A program made the position numbers and the translations under genes. A stretch of DNA of 64,000 nucleotides. It comes from an uncultured bacterium (lineage in GTDB: Bacteria; Hydrothermota; UBA3073; NMUJ01; CBEVQO01). The first letter of the stretch is position 1; the number at the start of each line of letters is the position of its first letter. The notes under the pieces are model-generated. The model was given only the letters and a program-made list of their open reading frames with translations, searched no databases and was not told where the DNA came from. Below are positions 24,088 through 58,438 of this stretch, one piece after another. The DNA lies in the NCBI GenBank assembly GCA_965552055.1, contig CBEVQO010000005.1:13373-77372 (forward strand). The letters are read 5' to 3'.

Positions 24088-24157
24088 GCCCCGACCGCCT
24101 TCTTAATATTGTCCCTTAGAGGACCTGTGTAAGAATAAGGGGTCGGGGCTTTTTTTT
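24088..24157 (+). terminator. Rho-independent terminator of the rRNA operon (long nested hairpin plus T8)
   Basis: gccccgacc (24088-24096) pairs with ggtcggggc (24141-24149), with inner complementary segments ttctta/taagaa and gtcc/ggac, followed by 8 T at 24150-24157. Confidence 0.6.
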
Positions 24158-24160
24158 ATT

Positions 24161-24266: not shown

Positions 24267-24273
24267 TTTTTAC

Positions 24274-24300
24274 TTGACTTTGTGACTTTCCTGTTATAAT
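24274..24300 (+). promoter_or_regulatory. sigma70-like promoter (TTGACT-N15-TATAAT) for the downstream envelope gene cluster
   Basis: TTGACT 24274-24279, TATAAT 24295-24300. The first ORF start (GTG 24307) lies 7 nt after the -10. Confidence 0.45.
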
Positions 24301-24306
24301 AAATAG

Positions 24307-38007: not shown

Positions 38008-38086
38008 AACCCCTCCTTACAAATTATAGAGGAAATATGGATTAGTCAACATTTTTCTTGACAAGGGAAAATATAATTTAAAATTT

Positions 38087-40768
38087 ATGATGGTGATTTT
38101 AATTTTCATACTGGGAACATTAATTGACTCTGCAGGTGGCAAATGTATAATTTCGCCGAAAGAGGATTTTGTAATTAAGGTGACACCCTTTTTATGGATA
38201 AAAATAGAAGATTTACCCGAAATTGTAAAGGAAGCCATAGATTCTGCTCCTTCCTGGCTTCGAGGTCGCTTAACTTTGAATTTTATGAAAATGTACGGTC
38301 AATGTCAAGAAGTTTATGCTGGACTTATTCTTTCTGTTGATAAAAGTTATCGTGATGAAATTGCTTTTCAGATAGCAACGCTTGACCCCCTTATCCTTTA
38401 TCATTATGTAGGTGACCCTTCGCTCTTTGTAGAAAATGTGAAGTTGATTTATAAAAGCGATAGTTTACTCGATTATGTTGAGCTTGTGGAGTATCCAGAA
38501 TATACAACCTGCAGATATAGAATATCTGACCATGGGAAAGATACTTTTGAGATTGAGATTCCGAAAGAGATTTATTACTGGGATATTGTTCATCCTGTAA
38601 TTGGCTGGGAGGCTCCTCTTTATATTGACCCGAAGGTACCTGACCCTTATCATACAGGTGCAGGGGAAGCGCCTCCGCCCCGTGGACATTTCTGGCGCGA
38701 ATATTATCTCTTTTATCCTGATACCGTTGAAAGTACAGTGATATCGGATAATGGTAAAGATACAGTTAAAGAAGGATATGTTTGCACTCCTTTAAAAGAC
38801 CTGTTAAAGGATGAAAAAATATTATGGGCGATGAAGAAAGATACAATAGAAGGTAACGGTGCAATAGGTAAACTTACTCAATGGGTTAAAGATGTTATGG
38901 TTTTTAACTCTGGTAGTGAGCGTCCCTGGCAGCCTGTTCGTGTTTATCACATGCATATGGGGAGGTGTGGTGAGCATGGGCATATTACTGGAGCAGCTGC
39001 AAGAGCAGCTCTTATACCTGCAACTTATATTTTGACACTTTGCAATGACCATGTATGGAATGAATTTTATGACGAAGAATGGCATACATGGGAGCCTGTA
39101 AACACTTATATAAATCATCCTGAAAGCTATGATAACTGGTGGAGCGGAAAGGCAGTGTTACCCTTTGCTTTCAGAGGCGACGGATGCATTATCGATGTTA
39201 CACAAAGATACACCCCGCATTGTACTCTTACCGTGTTTGTTGCAGATAGCGTGGGTAATCCGGTTGATGGTGCATGTGTAAAACTTTATGCAACACATAT
39301 TTATGGTGGGACTTATATATGCGGATGGCATTACACAAATACAGATGGATTGGCAAGATTTATAATCGGTGATAATGTAAGTTATTACATAAAAATAGAA
39401 TCAGACATTGGTAACTATCCTTCAAGTGGAAGTATGCAGATAATAACGATTTCGCAACCAGATACTCATTATTATTATGAGCATTATTTTGATGAATTTT
39501 TACCGCAATTAAATGCAGAAAGTACCCAAATAACAGAACCTGTAGAATATCGAGTTGAGATAACATTTAAACTTGAGGATGAATATACAGAAGCACAAAC
39601 TTTGTTTTCGAATGAACTGGGAGTTGCGCAAAAGTGGTTTAAAAAAGGGTTGCCAAAAATAAACTTTTTCATTTGTGATGAGGAGAATTATAAAAAATAT
39701 CTTGAAGGTGAAAATTTTGATGCTGTTTACATTGCAAAAAATGTAGATTCGGGATATGTGTCTTTTCAATTTCCAGTGCCTCATCTTACAAATTGGTACA
39801 TTGTTTTTATGAATAAAAATAAATGCAAGACTTATGAACTTCTTGAATTTGAAGTGAAGAGCTATCAATTAACTTCAGTAGCACATATTAAAGTTGAGAA
39901 AGCAGTTTATGATTTTGGGACAGTTATAGCAGGTAAATTTTCACAGGATACAATGTGGATTTATAACATTGGACTTGGTGACTTAAAAGTTGATAGTATA
40001 AAATTAATTTCAAATGTTTTTGATTTTGATGATAATTTGCCTTATATGCTTTCCTCGCATGATAGTGTGGGTGTTTTATTATATTTTGCTCCAGAAGATA
40101 CAGGTATTTTTTGTGATACTTTGTTTATTTATTCAGATGACATTGATGCCCAAGAGTTACCGGTAGTTTTGGTTGGTGAGAGTAGAGTGCCCGATATTGA
40201 GTTTGCAGATAGTGTGTGTGATTTTGGTACGGTATCCATAGGCCAAACTGTTTATAAAAGAGAAAAAGTGTGGAATTGCGGGAGTTATCCTTTAAAAATT
40301 GACAGTGTTATCTCGACGAGCAATTCATTTGGTGTTTACTCTCCTTCTTTTCCACAACAGTTAGAAGAGGGTGATACTCTCGAGATGATAATTTATTGTT
40401 CGCCACGGGATACGGGAATTCTTGAAGGCGAGTTTTTGTTCTATTCAAATGATCCCGATGAAAATCCAGCTGTGTTAAAATTAACGGCAAGGGGATATGG
40501 TCTTCAGGAAAAGTTAGGCAGTTTTTATGTGAAATACAATCCAAATCCCTGTAAGGATTTCTGTGTTATTACTTATTATTTGCCAAGAGAAGAAAAAGTT
40601 AGTTTAAAGATATATGATGTATGTGGCAGATGTGTTGAAAAAATTAATTCTTTTGAGAAAACAGGCATTCACAAAATTTTTATTAAAGATTTGCCATCGG
40701 GAGTGTATTTCTGCGAGTTTAAAGCAATGAAAAAATTGCATAGATTTAAGATAATCTTTATAAGATGA
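38087..40768 (+). CDS. Secreted transglutaminase-like domain protein with Ig-like domains and T9SS C-terminal sorting domain
   Basis: Transglutaminase-like core GRCGEHGHITGAAARAALIPATYILTLCNDHVWNEFYDEEWHTWEP (Cys/His). DUF1573-like Ig modules (YDFGTV...NIGLGDLKVDSI). C-terminal tail KIYDVCGRCV...GVYFCEF...FKIIFIR typical of T9SS sorting domains. Confidence 0.6.
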   Translation: MMVILIFILGTLIDSAGGKCIISPKEDFVIKVTPFLWIKIEDLPEIVKEAIDSAPSWLRGRLTLNFMKMYGQCQEVYAGLILSVDKSYRDEIAFQIATLDPLILYHYVGDPSLFVENVKLIYKSDSLLDYVELVEYPEYTTCRYRISDHGKDTFEIEIPKEIYYWDIVHPVIGWEAPLYIDPKVPDPYHTGAGEAPPPRGHFWREYYLFYPDTVESTVISDNGKDTVKEGYVCTPLKDLLKDEKILWAMKKDTIEGNGAIGKLTQWVKDVMVFNSGSERPWQPVRVYHMHMGRCGEHGHITGAAARAALIPATYILTLCNDHVWNEFYDEEWHTWEPVNTYINHPESYDNWWSGKAVLPFAFRGDGCIIDVTQRYTPHCTLTVFVADSVGNPVDGACVKLYATHIYGGTYICGWHYTNTDGLARFIIGDNVSYYIKIESDIGNYPSSGSMQIITISQPDTHYYYEHYFDEFLPQLNAESTQITEPVEYRVEITFKLEDEYTEAQTLFSNELGVAQKWFKKGLPKINFFICDEENYKKYLEGENFDAVYIAKNVDSGYVSFQFPVPHLTNWYIVFMNKNKCKTYELLEFEVKSYQLTSVAHIKVEKAVYDFGTVIAGKFSQDTMWIYNIGLGDLKVDSIKLISNVFDFDDNLPYMLSSHDSVGVLLYFAPEDTGIFCDTLFIYSDDIDAQELPVVLVGESRVPDIEFADSVCDFGTVSIGQTVYKREKVWNCGSYPLKIDSVISTSNSFGVYSPSFPQQLEEGDTLEMIIYCSPRDTGILEGEFLFYSNDPDENPAVLKLTARGYGLQEKLGSFYVKYNPNPCKDFCVITYYLPREEKVSLKIYDVCGRCVEKINSFEKTGIHKIFIKDLPSGVYFCEFKAMKKLHRFKIIFIR

Positions 40769-40798
40769 GATTTAATTCAGAAAGAGAAAGGGAGTGTT

Positions 40799-43141
40799 AT
40801 GAAGAAGTGTGTTTTAATACTATGTGTATTTTGGGGTCTATTAATGGCTAATGCCGATGCTGAGAAATGGGTTGTGGATACTTCTGGTGTAGAGGGCGAA
40901 TCTTTACAGGTGGCGATAGATAAAGCATGGAATGACCCTGGAATTGATACTGTAGTGGTTAAAAACGGGAAATATCATCTTGCTATAAATGGCGATACGG
41001 GTTTAATAATGCGAGATTCTGTTGTATTGATAAGCGAAGGTGGTGCGTACAAATGCACACTTACAGCAATAAAAGAAGATTTCAGTGACACTGCATGGCA
41101 TGTGATTTTTTGTGATACAAGTGGCTTCAAAGATACTGCATCTCATGCAGCACTGATAAAAGGTTTTACAATAAAAGATGGCAAGACAGAGTTCGGTTCT
41201 CCACCGCACAACCAAGGTGGAGGCATTTTCTTATACAGGGCTTCTCCTGTTATTGAATCATGCAATATTGTTTACAATACCGCCTACAATGGAGCAGGCA
41301 TTTACATTGAATATGCTTCACCTATATTGAGGGATAACATAATAGCGCATAATTATGCTTACTATTTTTGCGGAGGCGTTCATATTGCTGACCATTCCTC
41401 ACCTTATTTAAGCGGTAACATTATAAAAGATAACTCGGGATATTATGCAGGTGGTATTTGCATTATAGGTTATTCAAGACCTGAATTGTGCAATAATATT
41501 ATAGAAAAGAATTGGGCGGGTGCTCTTGGTGCGGGCATTTATATCCTTGCTTCTTCTTCAGCAACTCTAAATAATAACATTATTAAAAACAATCATGCCG
41601 ATTATAAAGGAGGCGGTATTTGCATTTTGCAAAATTCTTCCGCGATATTAAGGGCTAGCATTATAAAGGGCAATAGTGTTTATCACCATGGTGGTGCTTT
41701 ATGCATAGGTAAAAATTCTTGGTGTGTGCTTTCGAATAATGTTATTATCGATAATAAAGCTCGTGATTATGGTGGATGTGTTTTTATTTGTGATAATGCT
41801 TCTCTTTTGATGAAAAATTGTGTTATTGCGATGAACAAAGCACTGGAAGGCGGGGTAATATTTGAAAGTTGTTCAAGCAAAACTGTAATTGATTCGTGTT
41901 TTATAATTGATAATGGCAGTCATTCTTCGCGCACGGGTCTTGCATTCATTGATAGCACTGCGGATTCAGGTGTGACATTTAAAATTTCAAATTCAAATGT
42001 TTATTATAATACCTATCAGCCCGATACCGAGATTTATAACTTATCGAGTGTTATGATAGATTTAAAGAACAATTTCTGGTGGGATACAACCGATAGTGAA
42101 ATATCATCATTGATTTACGGCTTAAATGACCATTCTAACTGGCGAAAAGATTTTGTGTCTGGTGTGCCAGGTGAGCCTCTTCAAGTTGATTCTGTAAAAG
42201 TGTATATTGATTCGATGTATTCTGAATTAGCCGATAACATATGGGAACCATGCACCCTTTATTTGAGATTATTCGGCAGAGATAGATTAAGGAATGTGAA
42301 AGAAATAGCCATTGCCATCGTTAAGACATCCATTTACCAGGTAGGGATTGCTGTTAGTTTGTTAGAAACGGATACTTCATCTGGAATATACGAGGGTGAA
42401 ATTTATGTGAAGGAAGTTACAGGAAAGGATACCATTCAAACTGATGATATTTATCAAAGAATAAAGGTTGATTCAATATGGGATACGATAATTGTTTTTC
42501 CTAACATTGATGTTACAAAGAGATACCGTGTAATTTACAAAGGTCCTGATATTGATGTATCTTATAAGAATTATGATTTTGGAAGTATAAATGTTGGAGA
42601 TAGTGCTGATTTTGAATTTTACTGCATGAATAAAGGTATTGCGAATCTTATAATTGATAGTGCAAAAGTAGATTCACCTTTCTTTGTAGTTTCTCCTGTA
42701 TTACCTTGCAGTATCGGGAGTGGTGATAGTGTAAAAATGGTTGTAAGATTTATCCCGCGTGATACGGGCAACTATACGGATACACTTAAAATTTATTCCA
42801 ATGACCCGAATGAACAGGTGATTTATATTTTGCTATCAGGTAGCGCTGTTTCGCCTTTTGTAAAAGAAATAAAACCTGTTAGATTCGAATTTAAAGGCGT
42901 GACCCCCAATCCTTTATGCAATCACGGTAAAATTCATTATGCTGTTCCTGAGAAATCGCACATTAATATAAGAATATATGATGTCACCGGTAGATTCATC
43001 AAAGAAATTATCAATGAAGAAAGTTCACCTGGCTTTTATGATGTTGAATTCAAAATTAATTTACCGGAAGGCGTTTACTTCATCGTAATGGAAGCTGACA
43101 AATTCAAATCGATTCGCAAATTTCTGGTAATAAAATGGTGA
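40799..43141 (+). CDS. Secreted right-handed parallel beta-helix repeat protein with T9SS C-terminal sorting domain
   Basis: Signal peptide; more than 8 repeats of ~23 aa of the form NNII.(D/N)N...GGGI.I.; Ig-like module (YDFGSINVGDSADFEF); tail RIYDVTGRFIKEI...GVYFIVMEADKFKSIRKFLVIKW. Confidence 0.6.
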   Translation: MKKCVLILCVFWGLLMANADAEKWVVDTSGVEGESLQVAIDKAWNDPGIDTVVVKNGKYHLAINGDTGLIMRDSVVLISEGGAYKCTLTAIKEDFSDTAWHVIFCDTSGFKDTASHAALIKGFTIKDGKTEFGSPPHNQGGGIFLYRASPVIESCNIVYNTAYNGAGIYIEYASPILRDNIIAHNYAYYFCGGVHIADHSSPYLSGNIIKDNSGYYAGGICIIGYSRPELCNNIIEKNWAGALGAGIYILASSSATLNNNIIKNNHADYKGGGICILQNSSAILRASIIKGNSVYHHGGALCIGKNSWCVLSNNVIIDNKARDYGGCVFICDNASLLMKNCVIAMNKALEGGVIFESCSSKTVIDSCFIIDNGSHSSRTGLAFIDSTADSGVTFKISNSNVYYNTYQPDTEIYNLSSVMIDLKNNFWWDTTDSEISSLIYGLNDHSNWRKDFVSGVPGEPLQVDSVKVYIDSMYSELADNIWEPCTLYLRLFGRDRLRNVKEIAIAIVKTSIYQVGIAVSLLETDTSSGIYEGEIYVKEVTGKDTIQTDDIYQRIKVDSIWDTIIVFPNIDVTKRYRVIYKGPDIDVSYKNYDFGSINVGDSADFEFYCMNKGIANLIIDSAKVDSPFFVVSPVLPCSIGSGDSVKMVVRFIPRDTGNYTDTLKIYSNDPNEQVIYILLSGSAVSPFVKEIKPVRFEFKGVTPNPLCNHGKIHYAVPEKSHINIRIYDVTGRFIKEIINEESSPGFYDVEFKINLPEGVYFIVMEADKFKSIRKFLVIKW

Positions 43142-43172
43142 TAAAAATTGATAAAAATTTTTAATTTTTAGC

Positions 43173-43199
43173 TTGACAAAGTCAAAATTTGATTAAAAT
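43173..43199 (+). promoter_or_regulatory. sigma70-like promoter (TTGACA-N15-TAAAAT) for the giant surface-protein gene
   Basis: agcTTGACAaagtcaaaatttgatTAAAAT, then SD AGGAGG at 43206-43211 and ATG at 43217. Confidence 0.5.
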
Positions 43200-43216
43200 A
43201 GATAAAGGAGGTTGTT

Positions 43217-46200
43217 ATGAGGTGGTTAATTTTTATGTTTTTAACTGCAAATCTGTGGGGGGCTGAATACTGGTGGAGGATTGAGGTCGTTGATTCTGGG
43301 GTTCAGCGTGGTCAATATACAAGTGTTGTTCTTGATGATAGTGGTAGACCCTGGATTTCTTATTATGATGCCAATAATGGGTGGTTGATGTGTGCGCACT
43401 GGACAGGGACTGCATGGGATATTGATACGGTTGATGATAGTGGCAATGTTGGTATGTATTCGAATATTGCTCTTGATAAAGCAGGTTATCCTCATATCGT
43501 TTACTTTGATGATGGGAATACAAGGTTAAAGCATGCGTGGTGGACTGGTGCTTTTTGGAAAACAGAGACCGTGAATGACCCTAACTCAAATGATTATGGA
43601 TACTGGTGCGATATTGCTATAGATTCTTTAAATCGCATCTGGGTATCGTACTATGATGCTGATAACAAAAGGCTTATGTGTGCACGCAAAGTAGGAGCTG
43701 TGTGGGATACTATTTATATCGTAGTTGAAGCATTTGGACCTCCGGTCGGGGAATACTCATCAATTTGTATTGATACATCTAATAATCCCCATATATCCTA
43801 TTATCATCAGATTAATGGGTTATCTCATGCATGGTGGGATGGTTCAAAATGGCAGGCTCAGCAGGTTGATTTTGCAGGCGGTTATTACACAAGCATAATT
43901 GCAAGCGAATGTGATACACTGCATATATCTTATTACAATCCTTCTTCGCGGGATTTAAAATATGCGAAAGGTTATTATTCTTCGGGTAGCTGGGGATGGA
44001 CGACGCAGGTAGTTGATACACAGGGAGATGTTGGCAAATGGACGAGCATAGCTGTCTGTGGAAATTCACCTCATATATCCTATTATGATGCTACAAATTT
44101 ATGTCTCAAATATGCACATTTTGAGAATGGTAGCTGGGAGATAGAAGTTGTTGATTCGCCGAAAGTCGGTGAATACACATCAATTGCACTTGATACAAAT
44201 GGCTTACCCTGTATATCCTATTATGACGGAGGTAGTGAATGGCTTAAATTTGCAAGATTGCTTATAAGACCAGAGGTTGATTCAACTTCACCTCTTCATA
44301 ATGAAGTTAATGTATCGCGTGCAACTCAGATAAATGTCTGGTTCTCAAAGGATATTGAATCTGCAACAATAAATAGTGCGAGTTTTAAAGTAATTGGTTC
44401 ACAATCGGGTGAAAGGAAGGGCACGATAACTTACGATTCTAATGAACGCAAAGCAACTTTTACATTGAATGCAGGTGAAACTTTCTATACCGGTGAGAAG
44501 GTGACAGTAATTTTAACAGATTCTATTAAGTCAGTGGATGGTGCACCACTTGTGCCTTATGTGTTTGAATTTACGATAAAGGCAGCCGAAGGGATTGCAG
44601 AGTTTAGTAATGAGGTAAGGTATAGTGTATTGGGTACGCCTGTTGATATAGAGGTTTGTGACCTTGACCTTGATGGTGACCCAGACATTGTTACGCTTTC
44701 ACAGGATACGATAATGATATGGCGTAATGATGTTGATAGTCTGGTACCTGTGGATACTATTCCCTCGCCTTCTTCACAGTACTGCATTGCGATATTAGAC
44801 CTTGATTTGGATGGTTTACCTGATATTGTGGTTGATTCAACTCCATCGAGTGCTCCTTATAGTATAAAGTTTTACAAAAATCAAGGTGGATTGAATTTCG
44901 CCTGGGGTTTTCGTTGTCAAACTGCTTATGGTGTAACAGATATGTTTGTGTCTGACTTTGATGGAGATGGCGACTTTGATATTGCTGCACTGGAATTAAC
45001 TCAGGTTGAGATTCTTTTAAATGAAGGATTTTTTAATTTTACATCGAGTGATACGATTGACCTTACATTTTCGCACAATAAATTATATGGTGCTGATTAT
45101 AATAATGATGGGTTGATTGACCTTGCTGTTACTGCCGCAGCGGGCACTCCCGGTTATGATGTTCTTGCAAATGAAGGTGAAGGCAAATTTAAGCACATTG
45201 GAACAATAACTTTAAGTCAGGGTGTTAAGGATATTATTGCATCTGATTTCGACAATGATTACAATGCGGATAATGCTTTGACGGGCGATGATACACTTAT
45301 TATTTCAGAAGGCAATGGTGATTTTAGTTTTGCACCGGAAGATGATTATGTTGCTACTGGTTCAAATTTTCTTACTTCCGGTGATTTTGATGCAGATGGT
45401 GATATAGACCTTGCGGTTAGTGGGAATGTTACAGGTGGTGATACTTTATTTATATTTTTGAATGATAATGCTAGTTTTGATTCTGTTCACAAATTTTCTG
45501 CAACTGCGATAGAAAGAATTGTGAGTGCAGATTTTAACCTTGATAGCACAATTGATATTGCATCTATTCATTCTGGTGGAATATTATCAATATTTTACAA
45601 TACGCCCGATACATTTCCACCTCCGCCTCCTGAAAGTTTAACTGCAAATGGTGGTTCTCCCTCTCCATGGGATTCCAGTGCTCGATTTGTAATTGACTGG
45701 ATAAATCCTAATGACCCATCGGGGATACTTTTTGCCAATTATAAGATAGGTTCGAGACCTGTGAGTGACTGGGATACAACAGGTCATATGTCTGCACCGT
45801 ATACTCATCCCAAAGATACGATTTACTGGAAAGGGGAAGGGATAGATACATTGTGGGTGTGGCTTGTTGATGGTAACCTTAACACCTCGAAAGATTCTGT
45901 TTCATTTGTGCTTTTAAGAAGGGATACAACACCTCCTCCTGAGCCACAAAAGATTTCTCCATCTGATGGAATATGGGTTGATAGTGCAAGGATAAAATTT
46001 ATGTGGCATTCTGTTGTTGATTCTCTATCAGGGACAATGAGTTATGGGATAGTGCTTGAATATGATGATGTAATAGGTCCTCCTTATATTAGAACAGCGG
46101 GCGATTTGAGTGGCACAACTTACTTTTATACATGTCCTGAGACTGCTGTTTACTGGAGAGTATTTGCAAAGGATTCGGCAACAAACAGGAGTCCGCAATC

Positions 46201-49200
46201 ATTCTGGTGTGTAAAAATAGACACAACTCCTCCAAATAAATTTTATGTTATTTCTCCCGATGGTGTATGGTTGAGGAAACCTCCTTATACATTTATCTGG
46301 CATAGTGCAAAAGACCACTGGTCAGGTGTTGAAAGTTATAAATTGAGAGTGTGGAGAGAAGGTTTTGCTGCTAGCAATTGGTCCGGTATAACTGATACCT
46401 CTTACATTGTGTTTGGTTTGCCTGGTTTTGCCGAAACTACATACTGGTGGTGTGTTATAGCGTATGATTCTGCTGGAAATTATGTGTATAGTGATACAGG
46501 GATTTTCTGGACAGATACTACAATTTTGCCGCCTTCTAATCTCACGATAAATGGTAAAAATCCGAACGACTGGACCAATGATAGTGTATTTACATTGAAC
46601 TGGACAAATCCTTCTGATTATTCCGGTATCGTTAGAGCATTATATAAGATTGGCAATAGACCTTCTTCTGATTATGATACAACTGGTTCTCTCACAGGAA
46701 TTCCTCCTGTAAGTATTATCTGGCGGGATGAAGGTGTAGAAACATTATGGCTGTGGCTCGAAGATAAGGCAGGTAATGTTGATTACACAAAAAATGCATT
46801 TGCAATAATAAGAAGGGATATAACTCCGCCTCAATCTTTTACTCAGATTTCACCTGTAAATAATTTCTGGCTAAATACCATTAATCCTCGCCTTATATGG
46901 CACAGCACTATGGATACTTTGTCGGGCTTGGCTTATTATACGATAAATGTTGATACAGTTCAAACATTTTCAACGAAAATAATTTGTGATACTGTTTCGG
47001 ATACCATTTACAATGCAAATCTATTTGAAGACGCGTTTTACTGGTATGTTGAGGCATGGGATTCTGCTGGTAATGTATGTTCTACTTTTGTGTGGAATTT
47101 CAAAATAGATACAACCCATCCTCCCAAACCTGTTTTAATATCTCCTCCTGATGGCTCATGGAACGGCAAATATGCTCATTTTGTATGGCATAAAGTTGAA
47201 GATTACTGGTCTGGTCTAGCTGCTTATCGCTTAAACATTGATACGAATGCTTTGATGCCAAATCCTCTGACATTTTCACTTACAGATACAGAGACAACAA
47301 TTGTGCTTACTCATGAAGGCAAAACTTATTACTGGATGGTGGAAGCTGAAGATTCGGCATTTAATATATCGCAAAGTTTGGTATGGACTTTCAAACTTGA
47401 CACAACAGTTCTTGCACCGATTAATTTAATTGCAAATGATAGTTCTCCGTCACCGTGGCAAAGGAGTTCTATGTTTGTTATTAACTGGCAAAATCCATCT
47501 GATTCCGCTGGAATAAAGTTTGCATTATACAAACTTGGCACAGGACCCAGTAATAACTGGGATACCACAGGTACGATGCATTTACCACCCGATACGATTT
47601 ACTGGCAGGGCGAGGGCAAAGAAACTTTATGGGTATGGCTTTGCGATAGTGCAGGCAATGTTAATTACCATAATCGCTCTTTTGTGTTGTTAAGAAGAGA
47701 TACAACTCCTCCTTTTGCATTTTCAAAAATAAGACCCCAGGATAATGCGTGGATAAGGGTTGTTAAGCCTTCTCTTATCTGGCATAGCACTCAAGATTCT
47801 CTATCGGGTCTGAGGATTTATCGTGTTGCTGTAGATAAAGATATGACTCCTCCTTTTATGATTGATTTTGTTTTGCGAGGTACTCTATATGTTACACCCC
47901 ATTTACCTGAGACGATACTTTACTGGGCAGTCGTAGCAGTTGATTCTGCAGGTAACTTTAAAGAAGCTGATGCGGATACAAAAGTATGGTGGAAGATGAA
48001 AATAGATACAACTCCTCCTGATACAGTCCATCCAGTTTATCCTGTATCTAATCAATGGACGAGAGGTGGATTTATGTGGCGTAGTGCTAAAGATTACTGG
48101 TCAGGGATTAGATTTTATCATTTTGTGATAGATACAGTTTATCCATTCACTCCCAGTCCCATAAAGGATACAGTTTGCAGGGATACCGTGATATTTATCA
48201 AAGGACTTTCTGAGCGGAATTATTACTGGAAAGTTGTAGCATTAGATTCTGCTTTTAATGGAGGTGCTGGTGTTGTTCATCAATGTCGAGTTGATACCAC
48301 GCCACCGGATAGCGTTAAATTAATCTCTCCTGAGAACCTTTCTTACACGAATGATATACATTCTGTATTTACATGGGATACAGGCTATGATGCGCGTTCA
48401 GGTGTTATGGGCTATATTTTCTGGGATTCTTCACTTGCATATGGTGAAAAAATTGATACTCTTATCTTAGGCGTATTTAACACATCTTATAAGCCTTTAA
48501 AAGGTTTAAAGGAGGGCTGGCATTGCTGGGCAGTTGTAGCAATGGATTCAGCCTACAATGTTAGTGATGGTCATTATCCTTATTCTGTGCATTTGTTATG
48601 TGTGGATACTACTCCTCCTGAGTCCGCAATTGCAACTTCGCCTCTTTATGTTGATAGCCTTGTATTTGTTGTGCAATGGAGTAAAGGTAAAGATACTTTA
48701 TCGGGCATCACAGATACTTATAAATTGAGATATTCTACAGATTTAGTTTCATGGTATGATACGGCTGTTACGGGTACCGCATTTATTTTCAAAGGAGAAG
48801 ACCAGACAAAATATTACTTTGAGGTGCTTTCTCGGGATTATGCTGGCAATTTTGAGCGCATCACAGGAGTGCCTGAATGCTCAACCTATGTTGATACTAC
48901 ACCGCCTCAGCAGGTTCAGTTAATCTCACCTGAAGGCTGGATTAAAGAATTATCACCTGTTTTAATATGGCACAAAGCAAATGACTTTACAGGGATAGCA
49001 GAATATTATGTGCAGCTAAGTAAAGATATGGGTTTCGATACCATTATTTTTTCGGATACCGTTGCAGATACATTTGCGGTGGTAGGTTTAAATTTAATGG
49101 AAAATGTTAAGTACTACTGGCGAGTTAGGGCAAAAGACAACGCAGGCAATGTAAACATGTGGTCAGGTTATAATATGTTTAAAGTGGATACATCATCGCC

Positions 49201-51430
49201 GCAAATACCTGAACTTGTAAGTCCTCTAAATGATACTCCAGTAACAACGGTTGATGATACTTTGACACTTATATGGAGGGCATCTTACGATGAGCTTTCT
49301 GGTATTTATGCTTATCAGGTGCAGATAAGCGAAGTTCCTGATTTCTCATCGCTTATACTTGATACTATTTTGTATCATCCTGATACTATATTGAGGTATC
49401 CAAGAGAATTAAATGAAATTAAGCATTATTGGCGAGTATTTGCGATAGATAGTGTCTGGAATGTTAGCGATGGACATAAAGGGACATTTATGGTTGACAA
49501 TACCGCGCCTGTACTTGTTCATAAGTATCCTGACCTGAATGACACGGTTGACCCGCGTATAAAAATAGAAATTGCATTTTCTGAAAAAGTAGACCCCAAA
49601 ACGGTTGATACTCTCTCCTTCTGTTTATATATGGAAGCAGAAAAAGTGAGAGGAAATGTTTATCAACATCCAGCTATAGAGACATTGTTTTACTTTGAGC
49701 CTAAAGAAAATCTTGAACCCAACACCAAATATCTTGTTGTTGTTTCAACAAAAGATAAAAAAGTTAAAGATATTGCAGGTAATAAGATGTCGATGGTGAG
49801 CTGGAGTTTTTACACTGCAGGCAGTGCTGATAATATGCCTCCGGATGTTAAGGAAATAAAAACTTATCCCGAAGTTACTTATGGTGCGCCTTATGTAGTT
49901 ATAAAAGCATTGCTAAAGGATGATATTTCGCGCATTAAATATGCTGAATATTTCGTTGATTCAGTGGGTTCACCTGGTACGGGCGATGCAATGATGCCAC
50001 TCGATGGTGCGTTTGATAGCAAAGAAGAGTGGGTGATAGATACTCTATTCACTAAAGATTATAGTGGCACTTTGAGGATATTTATTCAGGGTAAGGATGA
50101 ATGGGACAACTGGAGTGATGCAGTTAAATCGAAGATAATAGTATGTCCTCCCGATACAATACCTCCGCTTTTTGATATAATGGTTAATGGAAGCCGAGAA
50201 GATACACTTCAGGTGACAGATACTATTGTAGTGAGAACTAAATCTTCGGAAATTATAAATCCCGATTATCCCGTAGTATGCACTTTGAAATACAATTCCA
50301 CAGTTATTGCACAAACTATGAAGAGAGAAGATAGTGTTACCTATACTGTGCAATTTGTAATTACACATCCTCCTTTGACAGAATATGATGTTAAAGTGCT
50401 TGGTTACGATTATGGATGGCATTGGGATACTTTGAAGGATAGCATTGTAAGTATGCCAAATCTCGGTGTCAACGAAAAGCATTTTATACTTTATGACTTT
50501 GAATCACCCAGTATAATCTCATTTACATTAAAACCAGAGACCCTTGAAATAACGGATAAACTAAATGTGGAGATTACAATAAAAGATAATTATGAGCTTA
50601 AAGAAGTTAGATTTTATTTTGACTCCGACACCGTACCTGTGGAAACGATTTCATTGAGTGGCAGGGATACTTCTTTAACAACGAACATACCTGTTAGTGG
50701 TTTGACTCCTGCCTCTTCCCATATATTGCGTGCCCTTGCATCTGATATATGTGATAATATTAGCCCTGAAGTTTCTGCTGGCTTTTATATCAGAGAACTC
50801 GATGTCATACCACCTGTTTTGATGCTTCAGAGACCGGATACATTTTATCTTGGAGATTCCGTTTTAATAGTAGCAATCGCGAGCGAGAAATTGTCAAGAG
50901 ATTCAATTCCGGTTTGTTTGATAAAAGGCTTAAGAGGTAATGATACTTTGATAGATACTTTAAAGATGACTTTTGTGGATGATTCTACCTGTCAGACGAA
51001 ATACAGGGTTCAGGGTTTAAATCTGGGAGTTGCTTACATTGATGTATATGCTTATGATGAAGCAGGCAACCTTGGACTCGTTGAAGATTCGGTTTACATC
51101 AGTAAGAGAGGAAGATTATTTGACCCAAGGAGAGATGTGTTCCCGTTTCCTAATCCTGTTAGAAAATCCAACGAGGTGTATTTCCATATTTATGTGAATC
51201 AAAATGCCTATGTTGATATAAGAATTTATACGATAGAAGGTCGTCTTGTTAAGAGATTAGAAAGAATATTTGTAGAAGGAGGTCGTCCGAAATACAGCTG
51301 GGAGGCAAATGTAATTAAGGTTGACATTTCTAAATTAAAAACAGGATTATATTATGCCAAGATTACGATAAGGAGTCTGGATGGGAAAGAAAAACAGAGT
51401 TGCACCAAGAGATTTGTGGTGATAAAGTAA
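43217..51430 (+). CDS. Giant (2737 aa) modular secreted surface protein: N-terminal propeller-like repeats, FG-GAP/VCBS-like repeats, at least ten Ig/FN3-like modules, T9SS C-terminal sorting domain
   Basis: Signal peptide; about seven ~45-aa repeats (G.YTSIALD..G.PHISYYD....LKYA); DxDxDG repeats (DLDLDGDPDIV, DFDGDGDFDIA, DFDADGDIDLA); ~100-aa modules separated by (K/R)(I/V)DTTPP linkers, each with YW.V.A.D.AGN; tail FPFPNPV...IRIYTIEGRLV...KRFVVIK. Confidence 0.75.
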   Translation: MRWLIFMFLTANLWGAEYWWRIEVVDSGVQRGQYTSVVLDDSGRPWISYYDANNGWLMCAHWTGTAWDIDTVDDSGNVGMYSNIALDKAGYPHIVYFDDGNTRLKHAWWTGAFWKTETVNDPNSNDYGYWCDIAIDSLNRIWVSYYDADNKRLMCARKVGAVWDTIYIVVEAFGPPVGEYSSICIDTSNNPHISYYHQINGLSHAWWDGSKWQAQQVDFAGGYYTSIIASECDTLHISYYNPSSRDLKYAKGYYSSGSWGWTTQVVDTQGDVGKWTSIAVCGNSPHISYYDATNLCLKYAHFENGSWEIEVVDSPKVGEYTSIALDTNGLPCISYYDGGSEWLKFARLLIRPEVDSTSPLHNEVNVSRATQINVWFSKDIESATINSASFKVIGSQSGERKGTITYDSNERKATFTLNAGETFYTGEKVTVILTDSIKSVDGAPLVPYVFEFTIKAAEGIAEFSNEVRYSVLGTPVDIEVCDLDLDGDPDIVTLSQDTIMIWRNDVDSLVPVDTIPSPSSQYCIAILDLDLDGLPDIVVDSTPSSAPYSIKFYKNQGGLNFAWGFRCQTAYGVTDMFVSDFDGDGDFDIAALELTQVEILLNEGFFNFTSSDTIDLTFSHNKLYGADYNNDGLIDLAVTAAAGTPGYDVLANEGEGKFKHIGTITLSQGVKDIIASDFDNDYNADNALTGDDTLIISEGNGDFSFAPEDDYVATGSNFLTSGDFDADGDIDLAVSGNVTGGDTLFIFLNDNASFDSVHKFSATAIERIVSADFNLDSTIDIASIHSGGILSIFYNTPDTFPPPPPESLTANGGSPSPWDSSARFVIDWINPNDPSGILFANYKIGSRPVSDWDTTGHMSAPYTHPKDTIYWKGEGIDTLWVWLVDGNLNTSKDSVSFVLLRRDTTPPPEPQKISPSDGIWVDSARIKFMWHSVVDSLSGTMSYGIVLEYDDVIGPPYIRTAGDLSGTTYFYTCPETAVYWRVFAKDSATNRSPQSFWCVKIDTTPPNKFYVISPDGVWLRKPPYTFIWHSAKDHWSGVESYKLRVWREGFAASNWSGITDTSYIVFGLPGFAETTYWWCVIAYDSAGNYVYSDTGIFWTDTTILPPSNLTINGKNPNDWTNDSVFTLNWTNPSDYSGIVRALYKIGNRPSSDYDTTGSLTGIPPVSIIWRDEGVETLWLWLEDKAGNVDYTKNAFAIIRRDITPPQSFTQISPVNNFWLNTINPRLIWHSTMDTLSGLAYYTINVDTVQTFSTKIICDTVSDTIYNANLFEDAFYWYVEAWDSAGNVCSTFVWNFKIDTTHPPKPVLISPPDGSWNGKYAHFVWHKVEDYWSGLAAYRLNIDTNALMPNPLTFSLTDTETTIVLTHEGKTYYWMVEAEDSAFNISQSLVWTFKLDTTVLAPINLIANDSSPSPWQRSSMFVINWQNPSDSAGIKFALYKLGTGPSNNWDTTGTMHLPPDTIYWQGEGKETLWVWLCDSAGNVNYHNRSFVLLRRDTTPPFAFSKIRPQDNAWIRVVKPSLIWHSTQDSLSGLRIYRVAVDKDMTPPFMIDFVLRGTLYVTPHLPETILYWAVVAVDSAGNFKEADADTKVWWKMKIDTTPPDTVHPVYPVSNQWTRGGFMWRSAKDYWSGIRFYHFVIDTVYPFTPSPIKDTVCRDTVIFIKGLSERNYYWKVVALDSAFNGGAGVVHQCRVDTTPPDSVKLISPENLSYTNDIHSVFTWDTGYDARSGVMGYIFWDSSLAYGEKIDTLILGVFNTSYKPLKGLKEGWHCWAVVAMDSAYNVSDGHYPYSVHLLCVDTTPPESAIATSPLYVDSLVFVVQWSKGKDTLSGITDTYKLRYSTDLVSWYDTAVTGTAFIFKGEDQTKYYFEVLSRDYAGNFERITGVPECSTYVDTTPPQQVQLISPEGWIKELSPVLIWHKANDFTGIAEYYVQLSKDMGFDTIIFSDTVADTFAVVGLNLMENVKYYWRVRAKDNAGNVNMWSGYNMFKVDTSSPQIPELVSPLNDTPVTTVDDTLTLIWRASYDELSGIYAYQVQISEVPDFSSLILDTILYHPDTILRYPRELNEIKHYWRVFAIDSVWNVSDGHKGTFMVDNTAPVLVHKYPDLNDTVDPRIKIEIAFSEKVDPKTVDTLSFCLYMEAEKVRGNVYQHPAIETLFYFEPKENLEPNTKYLVVVSTKDKKVKDIAGNKMSMVSWSFYTAGSADNMPPDVKEIKTYPEVTYGAPYVVIKALLKDDISRIKYAEYFVDSVGSPGTGDAMMPLDGAFDSKEEWVIDTLFTKDYSGTLRIFIQGKDEWDNWSDAVKSKIIVCPPDTIPPLFDIMVNGSREDTLQVTDTIVVRTKSSEIINPDYPVVCTLKYNSTVIAQTMKREDSVTYTVQFVITHPPLTEYDVKVLGYDYGWHWDTLKDSIVSMPNLGVNEKHFILYDFESPSIISFTLKPETLEITDKLNVEITIKDNYELKEVRFYFDSDTVPVETISLSGRDTSLTTNIPVSGLTPASSHILRALASDICDNISPEVSAGFYIRELDVIPPVLMLQRPDTFYLGDSVLIVAIASEKLSRDSIPVCLIKGLRGNDTLIDTLKMTFVDDSTCQTKYRVQGLNLGVAYIDVYAYDEAGNLGLVEDSVYISKRGRLFDPRRDVFPFPNPVRKSNEVYFHIYVNQNAYVDIRIYTIEGRLVKRLERIFVEGGRPKYSWEANVIKVDISKLKTGLYYAKITIRSLDGKEKQSCTKRFVVIK

Positions 51431-52428
51431 TGTTGAAGCAATTAGAGTACTGGATAAGAAAGGTGATAAGAGAAACAAAAGACCTTGAATTTGACACTCA
51501 CCTGATCGGTGTAAGGACTAAAAAAGAGGATTATCCGAAAGCCATTTTTAATAGGACTTTAAGTGAAGCTGTAAAAAGGAAATATGGTTCAAGGTTTGAC
51601 CCCAAGAATCCCGATGTTCAGATAATATGCGATATTGATAAAGATGAGATAGAATTTTACATAAAGCCTGTCTTCCTTTATGGTAGATACAGAAAACTTG
51701 TGCGTGGTATTCCTCAAACTCGCTGGGATTGTAAGGAATGCGGAGGAAAAGGATGTGAAAAATGTAATTACACAGGCAAAATGTATCCTGAATCTGTAGA
51801 GGAGATAATAGGTGATAAGGTTAAAGAATATTTTAAAGCAGAAGAAATAATTTTGCATGGTTGTGGCAGAGAAGATGTAGATGCGAGGATGCTTGGAAAT
51901 GGCAGACCATTTGTGCTCGAAATAAGAAAACCATGGAAAAGAAGAGTTGATTTGAACAAACTTACAGAAGAAATAAATGATAGTGCAAAAGGGAAAATTG
52001 AAGTTTTATTTTTGCGTTATACTGAGAGGCATGCCGTTAGATTGATAAAAGCGGTTCGTCCAAAGAAAGTTTATCTTGTAAATGTGAAGTTCGAGGAGCG
52101 GGTTGACAAAAGTAAGCTTCTGATGGCACTGGATGAATTAAAAGGTAAGGAGATAGTGCAAAGGACACCGATAAGGGTTCTGCATCGCAGAGCCAATTTA
52201 AAAAGGATAAGAAAAGTTTATGATTGTAAATTGATAGAGTTTAACGATTCTACTGCAAAGATAGAGTTTACATGTGAAAGCGGTATGTATGTTAAAGAGA
52301 TGATTTCAGGTGACTTTGGCAGGACGAAGCCCAGTTTAAGCGAAATACTCGGCGTGCAATGTGAGGTGCAGGAGCTCGATGTAATAGGTGTTGAGAAGAT
52401 TCCGTTAGAAGAATTTGGGTTCCTCTAA
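51430..52428 (+). CDS. tRNA pseudouridine synthase Pus10-like (archaeal/eukaryotic type)
   Basis: Zinc ribbon CKECGGKGCEKCNYTG and block HGCGREDVDARMLGNGRPF resembling the Pus10 catalytic-Asp region. ORF track starts at 51400; the ATG at 51430 (MLKQLEYW) overlaps the giant gene stop as TAATG. Confidence 0.55.
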   Translation: MLKQLEYWIRKVIRETKDLEFDTHLIGVRTKKEDYPKAIFNRTLSEAVKRKYGSRFDPKNPDVQIICDIDKDEIEFYIKPVFLYGRYRKLVRGIPQTRWDCKECGGKGCEKCNYTGKMYPESVEEIIGDKVKEYFKAEEIILHGCGREDVDARMLGNGRPFVLEIRKPWKRRVDLNKLTEEINDSAKGKIEVLFLRYTERHAVRLIKAVRPKKVYLVNVKFEERVDKSKLLMALDELKGKEIVQRTPIRVLHRRANLKRIRKVYDCKLIEFNDSTAKIEFTCESGMYVKEMISGDFGRTKPSLSEILGVQCEVQELDVIGVEKIPLEEFGFL

Positions 52429-55914: not shown

Positions 55915-56889
55915 TTGTCAAGTAGAAATTTCTTTATTGCCATTTTAATATTCCGAATAAATTTAATGGTGAAAAGATTTTTATTCATGATAATTATTTT
56001 GCTAACCTGTTCGCCACCCAGGGACAACCCCTTTGACCCCAATTCTCCCATTTTTAAATTTGGTTTCTTAAAGGGAAGTGTTAAAAATCATTATCATATT
56101 CCTGTTCCTTATCCCGAAATCTATATTTTAGGTTCACAGAAAGGTTGTGGAGATTCTACGGGTAACTTCTTTTTTAAACTCGAAGAGGATTCCTATAAAG
56201 TCATTTTTTCAAAAAGCGGATATACATCGTCAACTTTATCTGTATGGATTGCATCTAAAGATACTCTTGAGGTCTTTCCCGTTATTGCAGGGATACCTTA
56301 TTTTGAAGAAGTCGGTGTTGCTTCTGAATTTTACAAAGGTACAGCGATTCAACCTGATAGATGTTATCTCACTATAAGAGCGGAAGTCAAAGACCCCGAT
56401 GGATTACAGGATATAGATAGTGTGAAGTGCCTTATACCTGCTGATAATCCATATTATGTAACTCTTTTTCCTTCTGCAGGATACTATGAGGCTACAATAA
56501 AGGGCACGAGTATTGTGACGATAGAAAACTGGGTTGGCAGGACTTTTCGCGCTTATGCAGTAGATAAATGGGGGATTAGGGGTTTTTCTCGTGATTTTAC
56601 ACTTGTAAGAGTTATAAAGGAGACAGCGAATCCTTTATATCCCCAAAATGGTGATTCGGTGGAATCTCCCGTGACCTTTGTGTGGAGAAAGCCGGATGTG
56701 AATTTTAGCATTCATTATCAGCTGATATTATACGAAGAAAACGGTGCAGAGAGAATTTTCGATACAGAAGATACCACAATTACGCTTTCACTTAATCCTT
56801 CACGCTATAGCTATTACATAAGAGCAATAGACGAATTCGGTAATTTCTCACAATCCACTTACACTGTCTTTTATGTTATCTCAAAATGA
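55915..56889 (+). CDS. Hypothetical lipoprotein with Ig-like beta-sandwich regions
   Basis: Probable start at internal Met MVKRFLFMIIILLTCSPP (lipobox LLTC); beta-rich sequence. Confidence 0.45.
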   Translation: MSSRNFFIAILIFRINLMVKRFLFMIIILLTCSPPRDNPFDPNSPIFKFGFLKGSVKNHYHIPVPYPEIYILGSQKGCGDSTGNFFFKLEEDSYKVIFSKSGYTSSTLSVWIASKDTLEVFPVIAGIPYFEEVGVASEFYKGTAIQPDRCYLTIRAEVKDPDGLQDIDSVKCLIPADNPYYVTLFPSAGYYEATIKGTSIVTIENWVGRTFRAYAVDKWGIRGFSRDFTLVRVIKETANPLYPQNGDSVESPVTFVWRKPDVNFSIHYQLILYEENGAERIFDTEDTTITLSLNPSRYSYYIRAIDEFGNFSQSTYTVFYVISK

Positions 56890-58438
56890 TGAGCTTTTCT
56901 ACTCTATTATCCTGAGTTCTTACAAAGTAAATTCCCTCTTTAAGATTTGAAATACGAATAATCCCTGACTCATTTTTCAAAGAGCATATTTTTCTGCCTG
57001 TTATGTCGAATATTTCAATATTGCCTTTATAATTTATTTTTATGTAATCTTTTGCGGGATTTGGTATTAATTTTAATTTTGAAATCTTATTTTTATTTTC
57101 ATAGGTTGCTACTACTCCTTCGTTTATAACAACAGGTATCGATTCGTCGAAAGTTGCTGCGAAAACAGTATCACTGATAAAATCAGGTGTATTCCCGTAA
57201 ATTTTGTATAAGCCCGGAGTTAAACCGGTGAGATAAAAATTACCATAGGGGTCAGAGAGCGTAGTTTTCACACTTTTAGAGTTTCTGGCGATTATAATGC
57301 CTATCTTCTGTATCTTACAATAAGAAAGTTTTCCGTAAAGTGTAAAATACCCTGTTTTGCTTCTATTAAGTTTAAAGTTAATGTTCGAAGCCGATGATGA
57401 GAATTTAATCGCTTCCTGAAAATTAAAAGTGGATGGATAAAGTACACCTGTATGATTTTTTGCGAAGCAATAAAGATAAACTTCACCATGTAATCCGCTT
57501 AATCTGTAAAATCCATCACGATTTGTGATCGCACAATAGAACTTTGAGTTTTCATCAAATGCAAATACAAAAGCAGGATAAATTGGTGCACTGTCTTCTA
57601 CATAGCCTTCGATTGAAAAGCCTGTATTAACACTATCAAAAGTAAGTATAAGTGATGTATCGTTTTTGAGAAAAATGCTATCTATCGATGGTAGATAACC
57701 ATTTGCTACCGCTAATATCTTGTAGTTACCCTCAGGTAATAATAGAGTGTCCGTTATATCAACTTTTTTAATGGTGCAATATGTTTTTGATGCTATAAAA
57801 ACATAAGCTGAGCAATTTGTTGTTAGAGTTAAATTCAATAAGTTTGAAGGTTGCCTATATATTTCGATGTAGTAGTTTTCATCGGGTGCGAGATGTAAGT
57901 TTTCTATTTTGTTGATTATAAGGCCTTTGTAAAATGCTTCGAGTGTATAATGTGAGATTTTGCTTGTGTCCGGTGGTATATTATCGATGATGAACTCACC
58001 ATTTTCATCCGTTGATGCTGTTCCTACCGTATAAAGGTCGTTAAATTTTAATATTAAAGTTGCATCTTTTAAAGGTGTGGAATCCGTGTCCATTACTTTT
58101 CCGCTTATAGTAGCCGGATGCCAGTCGGGATTAGGCGATAGATTAAAATTTACATCTGTTATTTCACCTGTGATGATTATTTCAACGGCATCCTCAGGGA
58201 AATCCGCATTATACCACCACTGGGGGAAATATCCTCCTTTTTCTGCGTAAACATAAACGGTTTCCCCTGCTCTTAGACCGCTGAATTTATATCTCCCATC
58301 AGGAAAAGTATATGTCCATTTGTAAGGATATAAAGGTGCATCGAAAGCATTTTTTAATAGCAGTACGATAGAAAAATTCAAAGGTTCTCCATTACTTTCT
58401 ACTCTGCCAGTAAGTAATATTCCGATTAAAAAAATCAT
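56876..58438 (-). CDS. Secreted protein with carboxypeptidase-regulatory-like domains and T9SS C-terminal sorting domain
   Basis: Signal peptide; repeated CarboxypepD_reg-like modules (ISGKVMDTDSTPLKDATLIL...TDENGEFIID; GYVEDSAPIYPAFVFAFDENS...TNRDGFYRLSGL); tail LIPNPAKDYIKINYKGNIEIFDITGRKI...GIYFVRTQDNRVEKLIILR. Confidence 0.55.
   Translation of the reverse strand: MIFLIGILLTGRVESNGEPLNFSIVLLLKNAFDAPLYPYKWTYTFPDGRYKFSGLRAGETVYVYAEKGGYFPQWWYNADFPEDAVEIIITGEITDVNFNLSPNPDWHPATISGKVMDTDSTPLKDATLILKFNDLYTVGTASTDENGEFIIDNIPPDTSKISHYTLEAFYKGLIINKIENLHLAPDENYYIEIYRQPSNLLNLTLTTNCSAYVFIASKTYCTIKKVDITDTLLLPEGNYKILAVANGYLPSIDSIFLKNDTSLILTFDSVNTGFSIEGYVEDSAPIYPAFVFAFDENSKFYCAITNRDGFYRLSGLHGEVYLYCFAKNHTGVLYPSTFNFQEAIKFSSSASNINFKLNRSKTGYFTLYGKLSYCKIQKIGIIIARNSKSVKTTLSDPYGNFYLTGLTPGLYKIYGNTPDFISDTVFAATFDESIPVVINEGVVATYENKNKISKLKLIPNPAKDYIKINYKGNIEIFDITGRKICSLKNESGIIRISNLKEGIYFVRTQDNRVEKLIILR

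Follow-up and report, generated by a model that had tools for sequence, protein, structure and literature searches.

Four proteins encoded in the 64,000-nucleotide stretch of DNA analysed here (the window) are probably the cargo of a T9SS or of a system closely resembling it; the host would be a thermophilic diderm bacterium of the WOR-3/EM3 lineage. Three of them are encoded next to each other on the forward strand: TG893 (38087-40768; 893 aa), a predicted secreted transglutaminase-fold (Cys-His) enzyme with an Ig domain and a type A CTD; BH780 (40799-43141; 780 aa), a predicted secreted right-handed parallel beta-helix protein, again with an Ig domain and a type A CTD; and G2737 (43217-51430; 2737 aa), a giant adhesin-like surface protein with a PorU-like CTD. 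The fourth, C520 (56876-58438, reverse strand; 520 aa), combines CarboxypepD_reg and SdrD-B-like domains with a type A CTD. All four ORFs agree exactly with an earlier reading of this DNA from its letters alone (the sequence-only reading), and their coordinates leave gaps of 30 nt between TG893 and BH780 and of 75 nt between BH780 and G2737. CTD proteins account for four of the approximately 43 genes in the window, and a search of its 263 six-frame ORFs with an HMM trained on these tails detected no further ones. The large secretome that had been proposed is an extrapolation from these four genes.

The claim that the tails are of the T9SS type was supported by profile matches, conserved motifs, matches to solved CTDs and the CTD fold. 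Compared to the gathering score of PF18962 (Por_Secre_tail; 27) and the cut-off of TIGR04183 (23), both models scored above threshold in TG893 (CTD at residues 819-893, 40541-40765, forward strand; PF18962 match at residues 819-883; 38.3 and 32.9 bits, respectively) and BH780 (CTD at residues 701-780, 42899-43138, forward strand; PF18962 match at residues 703-777; 31.9 and 31.6 bits). The same was true of C520 (CTD at 56879-57067, reverse strand; PF18962 match at residues 459-518; 45.1 and 33.0 bits), encoded where the sequence-only reading had put the fourth such cargo. These three tails qualify as type A CTDs, with matches stopping no more than 10 residues before the stop codon. The tail of G2737 (residues ~2639-2737; 51131-51427, forward strand) scored 25.6 (residues 2644-2719) and 18.8 bits, which is under both cut-offs, narrowly so for PF18962. 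A tail length of about 80 aa, as originally described, holds for the other three proteins but not for G2737, in which two loop insertions extend the tail to approximately 100 aa. None of the four proteins matched the type B CTD models (TIGR04131/PF13585), and a type C assignment of C520 was rejected, as the NF033708 match overlapped the type A match and, at 20.3 bits, did not reach the cut-off of 40.

Alignment of the four tails, to which that of G2737 could be aligned as well, revealed an invariant P-N-P, G43, R44, G68 and Y70, and all four finish in a hydrophobic strand containing Lys or Arg. The common motifs are PNP, IYDxxGR (whose functionally important Gly starts beta4), LxxGxY and a last strand of basic character, corresponding to the CTD motifs described previously, namely the Gly that opens beta4 (L-beta3-beta4), GxY (motif D) and the Lys/Arg-containing last strand (motif E / C-t.) (PMC11285876, PMC10202324). 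A profile of the four tails matched PDB entries of T9SS CTDs that have been defined by experiment, including 8GLK_D (E=9.5e-6), 8GLJ_D, mirolase, PorU and gingipain. Structurally, the tails are seven-stranded Ig-like beta-sandwiches that can be superposed on solved CTDs, and among the compact matches T9SS CTDs ranked best: they were covered in full, their rmsd was the lowest and their identity the highest.

The tail of G2737, together with the Ig-like domain that directly precedes it (residues ~2560-2638), matched the C-terminus of the PorU model NF033707 with 43.5 bits, exceeding the generic CTD models, and the tail aligned with the CTD of PorU 6ZA2 (E=0.008). Among the best 150 matches to this tail in a set of 1.84 billion representative proteins, about 60 were PorU-type C25 sortases, and the tails closest to it (the '...DIYIFR...KKFAIVK' class) sit on other large non-PorU proteins. 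We considered whether G2737 is itself a PorU sortase and rejected this, since the match covers only positions 950-1094 of the 1095 in NF033707, its 43.5 bits fall short of the cut-off of 420, and a C25 peptidase domain is missing from the protein.

Upstream of the tails, the passenger domains (Transglut_core, Beta_helix/NosD, FG-GAP and Big_5) agree with the sequence-only reading, and together the passengers resemble a surface toolkit consisting of a Cys-His enzyme, a beta-helix of the polysaccharide-active type and two adhesin-like proteins, of which C520 is the smaller. In TG893, profile searches identified Transglut_core (31.3 bits) and an Ig domain (37.2 bits), the latter of the choice-of-anchor-D/HYDIN type at residues 702-799. 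Its core aligns with PNGase 2F4M with conservation of RCGE (Cys) and DHVW (His), and a metagenomic homolog that is 30% identical to TG893 shows the same TGase and CTD architecture. The passenger of BH780 resembles the parallel beta-helices of polysaccharide-active enzymes and is followed by an Ig domain at residues 583-677. G2737 begins with a signal peptide, about seven blade-like 'W.ISYYD' repeats (residues 1-350) and a Big_5 domain, continues with an FG-GAP/VCBS region (~460-800) and 13 tandem Fn3-like repeats of ~97 aa (804-2088; 13 copies by the repeat HMM), and ends with Big_5 (2094-2200), Ig-like domains and the PorU-like CTD; the profile search scores were 67.9 bits for FG-GAP_3 and 94.5 bits for Big_5. 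The adhesin-like G2737 has propeller-like regions besides its 13 Fn3-like repeats. In C520, CarboxypepD_reg scored 84.6 bits. The product of gene O324 (55915-56889, forward strand) is probably a lipoprotein (lipobox LLTC); it lacks a CTD and has a CarboxypepD_reg-like domain (weak matches). It carries one G2737-type repeat at residues 238-322 (iE 2.9e-6 with the repeat HMM) and is only a peripheral surface protein, perhaps a related one.

Hydropathy analysis showed an N-terminal hydrophobic segment in all four cargo proteins and other TM-like segments in none. As read from their sequences, BH780 and G2737 begin with n-h-c regions of the textbook type, and BH780 combines a GGGAG Shine-Dalgarno site with the classical signal peptide MKKCVLILCVFWGLLMANA/DAEK (the slash marks the predicted cleavage), while the signal peptides of TG893 and C520 are only probable due to the absence of a charged n-region. 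The host is a diderm with an outer membrane: the window encodes a beta-barrel-like protein ending in ...ATNPF that adjoins the pst operon, LpxC is present on the contig of a relative, and inner and outer membranes have been described in a cultured WOR-3 isolate (PMC12285271). Each protein would be exported over the inner membrane by Sec via its N-terminal signal peptide and would fold in the periplasm, where its C-terminal seven-stranded beta-sandwich CTD would be recognised. By analogy with Bacteroidota, the cargo would then use a SprA/Sov-type translocon and the PorV shuttle to pass the outer membrane, and a PorU sortase would release it or attach it to the cell surface.

Within the 64-kb window we recognised no SprA/Sov, PorV, PorU, PorK/L/M/N, PorW/SprE or PorT, and the T9SS component shown in relatives is PorU only. 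Three proteins on related contigs, the full-length PorU sortases P0293, P0418 and P0420, scored above the curated PorU cut-off (462-485 bits compared to 420) and share conserved synteny with a fragment labelled candidate division WOR-3 by NCBI. One of the PorU-bearing contigs also encodes a Dxs 60% identical to that of the window. No porV adjoined the PorU genes on these related contigs. According to a review, a few exceptions aside, CTDs and the core components of T9SS are correlated in their distribution (PMC10202324).

The proposal that the DNA derives from a probably thermophilic lineage outside Bacteroidia fits our results. Homologs of Dxs and of the beta-helix protein pointed to a WOR-3/Stahlbacteria-like host, and the nearest homologs of the cargo proteins carry a WOR-3 label; in some phylogenies WOR-3/Pyropristinus forms a deep branch that is not within FCB (PMC11696919). 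Thermophily is probable, as the 16S rRNA has a GC content of 62.2% compared to 36.2% in the rest of the window, and the amino-acid index indicates approximately 70-80 C. The classical expression signals described earlier were also recovered. The anti-SD is CCUCC, strong Shine-Dalgarno sites read GGAGG, and a perfect sigma-70 promoter (TTGACA-18-TATAAT; 19208-19237, forward strand) lies 5' of the rRNA operon, in which the 16S rRNA gene (19266-20818, forward strand) has the 3' end GGATCACCTCCTTT. A promoter-like element, TTGACA (43173-43178), a 15-nt spacer and TAAAAT (43194-43199), lies on the forward strand 5' of the G2737 gene and is followed by the Shine-Dalgarno sequence AAGGAGG (43205-43211). 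It shares the -35 context AGCTTGACAAA with the rRNA promoters and is a putative promoter whose spacer is shorter than canonical.

The three adjacent genes form a species-level cluster that is ~99% conserved in three other assemblies. The proteins are 99.2-99.6% identical in independent assemblies (99.2% for G2737 compared to strain L019), and the order from a CHASE2 cyclase via the trio to Pus10 recurs in an independent ENA assembly, with parts of it in separate Logan and JGI assemblies. Samples in which the species is present are ENA ERZ27248328, SRR7051321 and JGI Ga0190367. The trio had been described as a surface-protein island. Three adjacent co-oriented genes are indeed present and may be co-expressed. 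The term 'island' describes no more than this: composition shows no anomaly, conservation of the gene order stops at the species, and the trio is not a conserved operon.

If the tails were generic C-terminal Ig-like domains of the FlgD-Ig/Fn3 type, they would have no sorting role, there would be no working T9SS, and the proteins would be periplasmic or otherwise exported. We consider this unlikely, since one domain with CTD-specific motifs occupies the extreme C-terminus of four unrelated passengers, three of the tails exceed curated CTD cut-offs, the compact structural matches favour T9SS CTDs, and bona fide PorU sortases bearing the same tail type occur in WOR-3-type genomes. Another sorting system, such as PEP-CTERM/exosortase, LPXTG/sortase, GlyGly-CTERM or an autotransporter, is very improbable. 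The window does contain an XrtA-type chain-length-determinant-like gene, although its TIGR03007 score of 135 bits is under the cut-off of 278.85, and the beta-helix passenger fold resembles the autotransporter passengers Vag8 and UpaB. Against this, a search of NCBIfam and Pfam, together with hydropathy, for a different sorting signal in the tails returned no such match: PEP-CTERM, LPXTG, GlyGly-CTERM and autotransporter models matched none of the four proteins, there was no C-terminal TM helix (19-residue hydropathy maximum at the C-terminus <=0.69) and no PEP or LPXTG motif, and a C-terminal beta-barrel translocator domain was absent. The profiles that the tails do match are those of T9SS CTDs.

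The source contig seems to stem from a metagenome, with identical proteins encoded on an NCBI contig of 180,121 bp, which raises the question of whether Bacteroidota-type CTD genes were joined to a thermophile rRNA operon during assembly or binning. We regard such an artefact as having a negligible chance of being correct, given that GC is uniform (~36-39%) over the cluster and its flanks, that the CHASE2 cyclase to Pus10 order recurs elsewhere with ~99% protein identity, that the WOR-3 label attaches to the nearest cargo homologs and that the genes, in contrast to those of Bacteroidia, have strong Shine-Dalgarno sites in front of them. Export by a T9SS or a close T9SS-like system is the reading we prefer. 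A bolder version, which we find doubtful, is that WOR-3/EM3 ('Pyropristinus') runs a T9SS at ~70-80 C with its own CTD subclass ('...YIFR...KKFAIVK'), and that the PorU/PorZ-like CTD of G2737 is retained and tethered to a PorV-like barrel. If true, the retained CTD would represent a second anchoring mode for ordinary cargo, and the phylogenetic and thermal range of T9SS would be wider.

With these results WOR-3/EM3 joins the lineages that encode T9SS-type cargo, and related contigs show a PorU sortase in it as well. The members of this group are poorly known, mostly uncultured thermophiles whose genome papers do not discuss protein secretion, and in the literature searched we found no mention of T9SS in a WOR-3/Stahlbacteria-like lineage. 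The finding lends support to an envelope biology of the FCB type in WOR-3 and yields candidate surface enzymes and adhesins for a heterotroph of hot springs or vents. It also supplies thermostable CTD and PorU sequences that can be tested in tractable T9SS hosts, and it leaves the understanding of T9SS itself unchanged.

Type A cargo proteins of Bacteroidota, such as P. gingivalis RgpB, T. forsythia mirolase and F. johnsoniae NucA and RemA, have the same layout of signal peptide, passenger, Ig-like linker and seven-stranded CTD, and the beta4 Gly, GxY and basic last strand of their CTDs recur in the window tails, although identity is only ~18-28%. The host differs from Bacteroidota in being a thermophile of the WOR-3/EM3 kind that uses Shine-Dalgarno sites and sigma-70 promoters of the classical form, and the residue after the predicted signal-peptide cleavage is D or A, in contrast to the Q reported as typical of Bacteroidetes (PMC5837995). 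Compared to PorU and PorZ, whose CTDs are retained uncleaved, G2737 has a tail resembling the PorU C-terminus but lacks the C25 domain. T9SS probably exists in other FCB phyla according to reviews (PMC11285876), and Ignavibacteriota, Rhodothermota, Fibrobacterota, Cloacimonadota and Gemmatimonadota are further non-Bacteroidota FCB phyla with TIGR04183 secretomes. The thermophilic 'Candidatus Kryptonia', with 811 proteins ending in a Por sorting domain (PMC4737851), is likewise a non-Bacteroidia lineage rich in TIGR04183 proteins, whereas the lineage of the window is WOR-3/Stahlbacteria-like. Large TIGR04183 secretomes are thus already known from thermophilic lineages outside Bacteroidia, and our finding soundly, if unsurprisingly, extends a known system to a lineage that has been little studied.

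Four genes of the window encode proteins with a T9SS-type C-terminal sorting domain (CTD): TG893 (38087-40768, + strand, 893 aa), in which a Transglut_core and an Ig domain precede the CTD; BH780 (40799-43141, + strand, 780 aa; Beta_helix/NosD, Ig domain and CTD); G2737 (43217-51430, + strand, 2737 aa; FG-GAP, Big_5 and CTD); and C520 (56876-58438, - strand, 520 aa; CarboxypepD_reg and CTD). The ORF positions proposed for all four in a sequence-only reading were recovered with exactly the same coordinates, and Pfam and NCBIfam concur with the passenger types that it described. Both databases also showed each protein to carry, at its very C-terminal end, the T9SS type A sorting domain (PF18962/TIGR04183), in agreement with the tails that this reading had ascribed to the trio and to a fourth cargo. 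Both curated cut-offs were exceeded by the tails of TG893, BH780 and C520, and the G2737 tail fell a little under both (25.6 vs 27 bits for PF18962 and 18.8 vs 23 bits for TIGR04183). The four tails align over an invariant P-N-P motif, the Gly-Arg within an IYDxxGR turn, LxxGxY and a last strand that is hydrophobic and basic, a set with counterparts in the type A CTD motifs B, D and E (PMC10202324); in P. gingivalis CTDs, experiments showed the importance of the Gly that opens beta4 and of a basic residue in the last strand (PMC11285876). When searched against the PDB, a profile of the four tails retrieved experimentally defined T9SS CTDs, including 8GLK_D (E=9.5e-6) and 8GLJ_D, two cargo CTDs of F. 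johnsoniae visualised within the SprA translocon, as well as mirolase, PorU and gingipain, and the borderline tail of G2737 aligned with the PorU CTD (6ZA2, E=0.008). The shared motifs, the PDB matches and the G2737-PorU alignment thus identify the four tails, as judged from sequence, as real T9SS CTDs.

The possibility that the tails represent a different sorting signal was rejected, since none of the four proteins matched PEP-CTERM, LPXTG or autotransporter models in NCBIfam, and hydropathy revealed no internal or C-terminal TM-like segment in any of them. All four carry a hydrophobic N-terminal segment, signal peptides having been assessed by eye and hydropathy; secretion of the proteins, and any cleavage of their CTDs, are predictions. 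An HMM of the four tails found no further copies in the window. Regarding the passengers, the core of TG893 aligns to peptide:N-glycanase 2F4M with conservation of a catalytic Cys in RCGE and a catalytic His in DHVW, and TG893 is likely to be catalytically active as an enzyme of the transglutaminase fold. G2737 combines blade-like repeats at its N-terminus with an FG-GAP region and, at residues 804-2088, 13 tandem Fn3-like repeats of ~97 aa, a predicted architecture that is adhesin-like; one diverged copy of the ~97-aa repeat is found in O324, a probable lipoprotein encoded at 55915-56889.

TG893, BH780 and G2737, separated by spacers of 30 and 75 nt, had been described as a surface-protein island. 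The three cargo genes are indeed neighbours and are conserved in a second strain of this species, where protein identity (99.2-99.6%) equals that of housekeeping neighbours, but no compositional anomaly was detected over the cluster, and more distant BH780 and TG893 homologues sit in unrelated gene contexts, although a 30%-identical transglutaminase homologue retains the TGase and CTD architecture. Hence, the trio is a species-level cargo-gene cluster and not a conserved operon. Directly 3' of G2737 lies a gene for Pus10, the archaeal-type tRNA pseudouridine-54/55 synthase (51400-52428, + strand, likely true start ~51433; TIGR01213, 405 bits), which is kept in the second strain at 98% amino-acid identity. 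Its relatives among 185,579 species-representative genomes are solely archaeal (Thermoplasmata, Methanobacteriota, Methanothermococcus) with at most 50% identity, and it looks like an archaeon-to-bacterium transfer; according to the literature, Bacteria lack Pus10 (PMC5682645). A second gene with an archaeal or thermophile flavour encodes an 810-aa LonB/LonC-like protease (13319-15751, - strand) that combines AAA and lid domains of the archaeal LonB type with a LonC helical domain. The window also holds a compact type II restriction-modification pair (11340-13312, + strand), in which the gene for a restriction endonuclease of the MvaI/BcnI family (148.7 bits) precedes one for an N4/N6 DNA methyltransferase, and a gene for a 397-aa multi-pass membrane protein (15849-17042, - strand) with no family match and an E/K-rich low-complexity C-terminal tail (EEEEKKEEEKKEEKKEEEKKE). 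Adjoining C520, a regulatory cluster (58553-61997, - strand) encodes a small protein of the TPR/TssQ-like type, a Ser/Thr kinase ending in a PEGA domain and a sigma-54 activator that contains a GAF domain, and a putative link to surface-protein expression is possible.

Classical promoters and Shine-Dalgarno sites had been taken to set this genome apart from Bacteroidia. This contrast stands because of a classical rRNA promoter, GGAGG sites and the 3' end of the 16S rRNA (...GGATCACCTCCTTT). The 16S rRNA is preceded, at a distance of 29 nt, by a perfect TTGACA-18-TATAAT promoter (19208-19237), with a second similar box (TTGACA at 19142) further upstream, and GGAGG occurs at 13 of 43 maximal-ORF starts compared to a 13.5% background, with strong sites before BH780, G2737 and several other genes. 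G2737 is preceded by TTGACA-15-TAAAAT and AAGGAGG. In contrast, the TTGACA/TATAAT pair upstream of TG893 is not a canonical promoter, its 8-nt spacer bringing TTGACA too near for a -35 element. No Shine-Dalgarno site of TG893 was found (38058-38086), and since just 9 nt separate the TATAAT box (38072-38077) from the ATG, the mRNA may be leaderless.

The rRNA operon (19140-24450; 16S-tRNAIle(GAT)-tRNAAla(TGC)-23S) has a GC content of 62% compared to 36% for the rest of the window, and the non-CTD proteins have an IVYWREL fraction of 0.444, corresponding to roughly 70-80 C by published regression, both pointing to a thermophilic host, as anticipated. No 5S rRNA was detected in the 257-nt spacer downstream of the 23S, even at a relaxed threshold. 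A protein identical to BH780 occurs on an NCBI contig of 180,121 bp. Named homologues of BH780 carry the label candidate division WOR-3, and the window's Dxs is nearest to Ca. Stahlbacteria (65%) and WOR-3 entries (~60%), then TA06, Edwardsbacteria and Cloacimonadota. The best-match labels of these two proteins suggest a WOR-3/Stahlbacteria-like host, in line with the non-Bacteroidia lineage proposed earlier. WOR-3, also named EM3, Caldipriscota, Hydrothermota or Stahliibacteriota, was first sighted in Yellowstone hot springs (PMC12285271), and the deep placement of WOR-3/Pyropristinus is disputed (PMC11696919). A pstSCAB-phoU phosphate-uptake operon (2540-7526, - strand) is followed by a 335-aa protein without Pfam match ending in ...EFATNPF; this protein is probably an outer-membrane beta-barrel, and may be a phosphate porin, in support of a diderm envelope.

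No T9SS core genes were recognisable among the other ~39 genes of the 64-kb window. In a representative set of 1.84 billion proteins, PorU-type C25 sortases made up about 60 of the best 150 matches to the G2737 tail, among which P0293 is the PorU with the closest tail. This protein and two further homologues, P0418 and P0420, exceed the curated PorU cut-off (462-485 vs 420 bits) and share a conserved UbiE-methyltransferase/MJ0043_C/PorU synteny that recurs on a fragment labelled candidate division WOR-3 by NCBI; on one of the PorU contigs there is also a gene for a Dxs that shares 60% identity with that of the window. Based on these cut-offs, synteny and Dxs, predicted PorU sortases exist in WOR-3-type genomes. 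The tails nearest that of G2737 (P0260-P0295) form their own subclass, with a conserved GG(R/K)P loop and the ending '...(D/G)xYxFRxxAxSxxxGExxxVxKKFAIVK'. This subclass is carried by many large metagenomic proteins of up to ~2000 aa and may be a lineage-specific CTD subtype.

The T9SS pathway is well described, comprising Sec export, CTD recognition, SprA/PorV translocation and PorU processing (PMC10202324). CTD proteins are an accepted feature of several FCB phyla other than Bacteroidota (PMC11285876), and 811 TIGR04183 proteins were reported in Kryptonia, a thermophilic candidate phylum (PMC4737851). In the literature searched, we found no paper linking WOR-3 to T9SS, and NCBI automatic annotation already names CTD proteins of this kind in related MAGs. 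At three porU loci of WOR-3-type contigs (L021, L022 and L028), a conserved block encodes a UbiE-like methyltransferase, an MJ0043_C-domain protein, Trm112p, PorU, bactofilin and TatD, with a ~937-aa CARDB/FlgD_ig/Por_Secre_tail protein ~4 kb downstream. While porU is paired with porV in Bacteroidota, no porV adjoins porU at these three loci. The CTDs of PorU and PorZ stay on without cleavage, and the tail of G2737, which scored 43.5 bits on the PorU model over its last 145 positions, is PorU-like in character.
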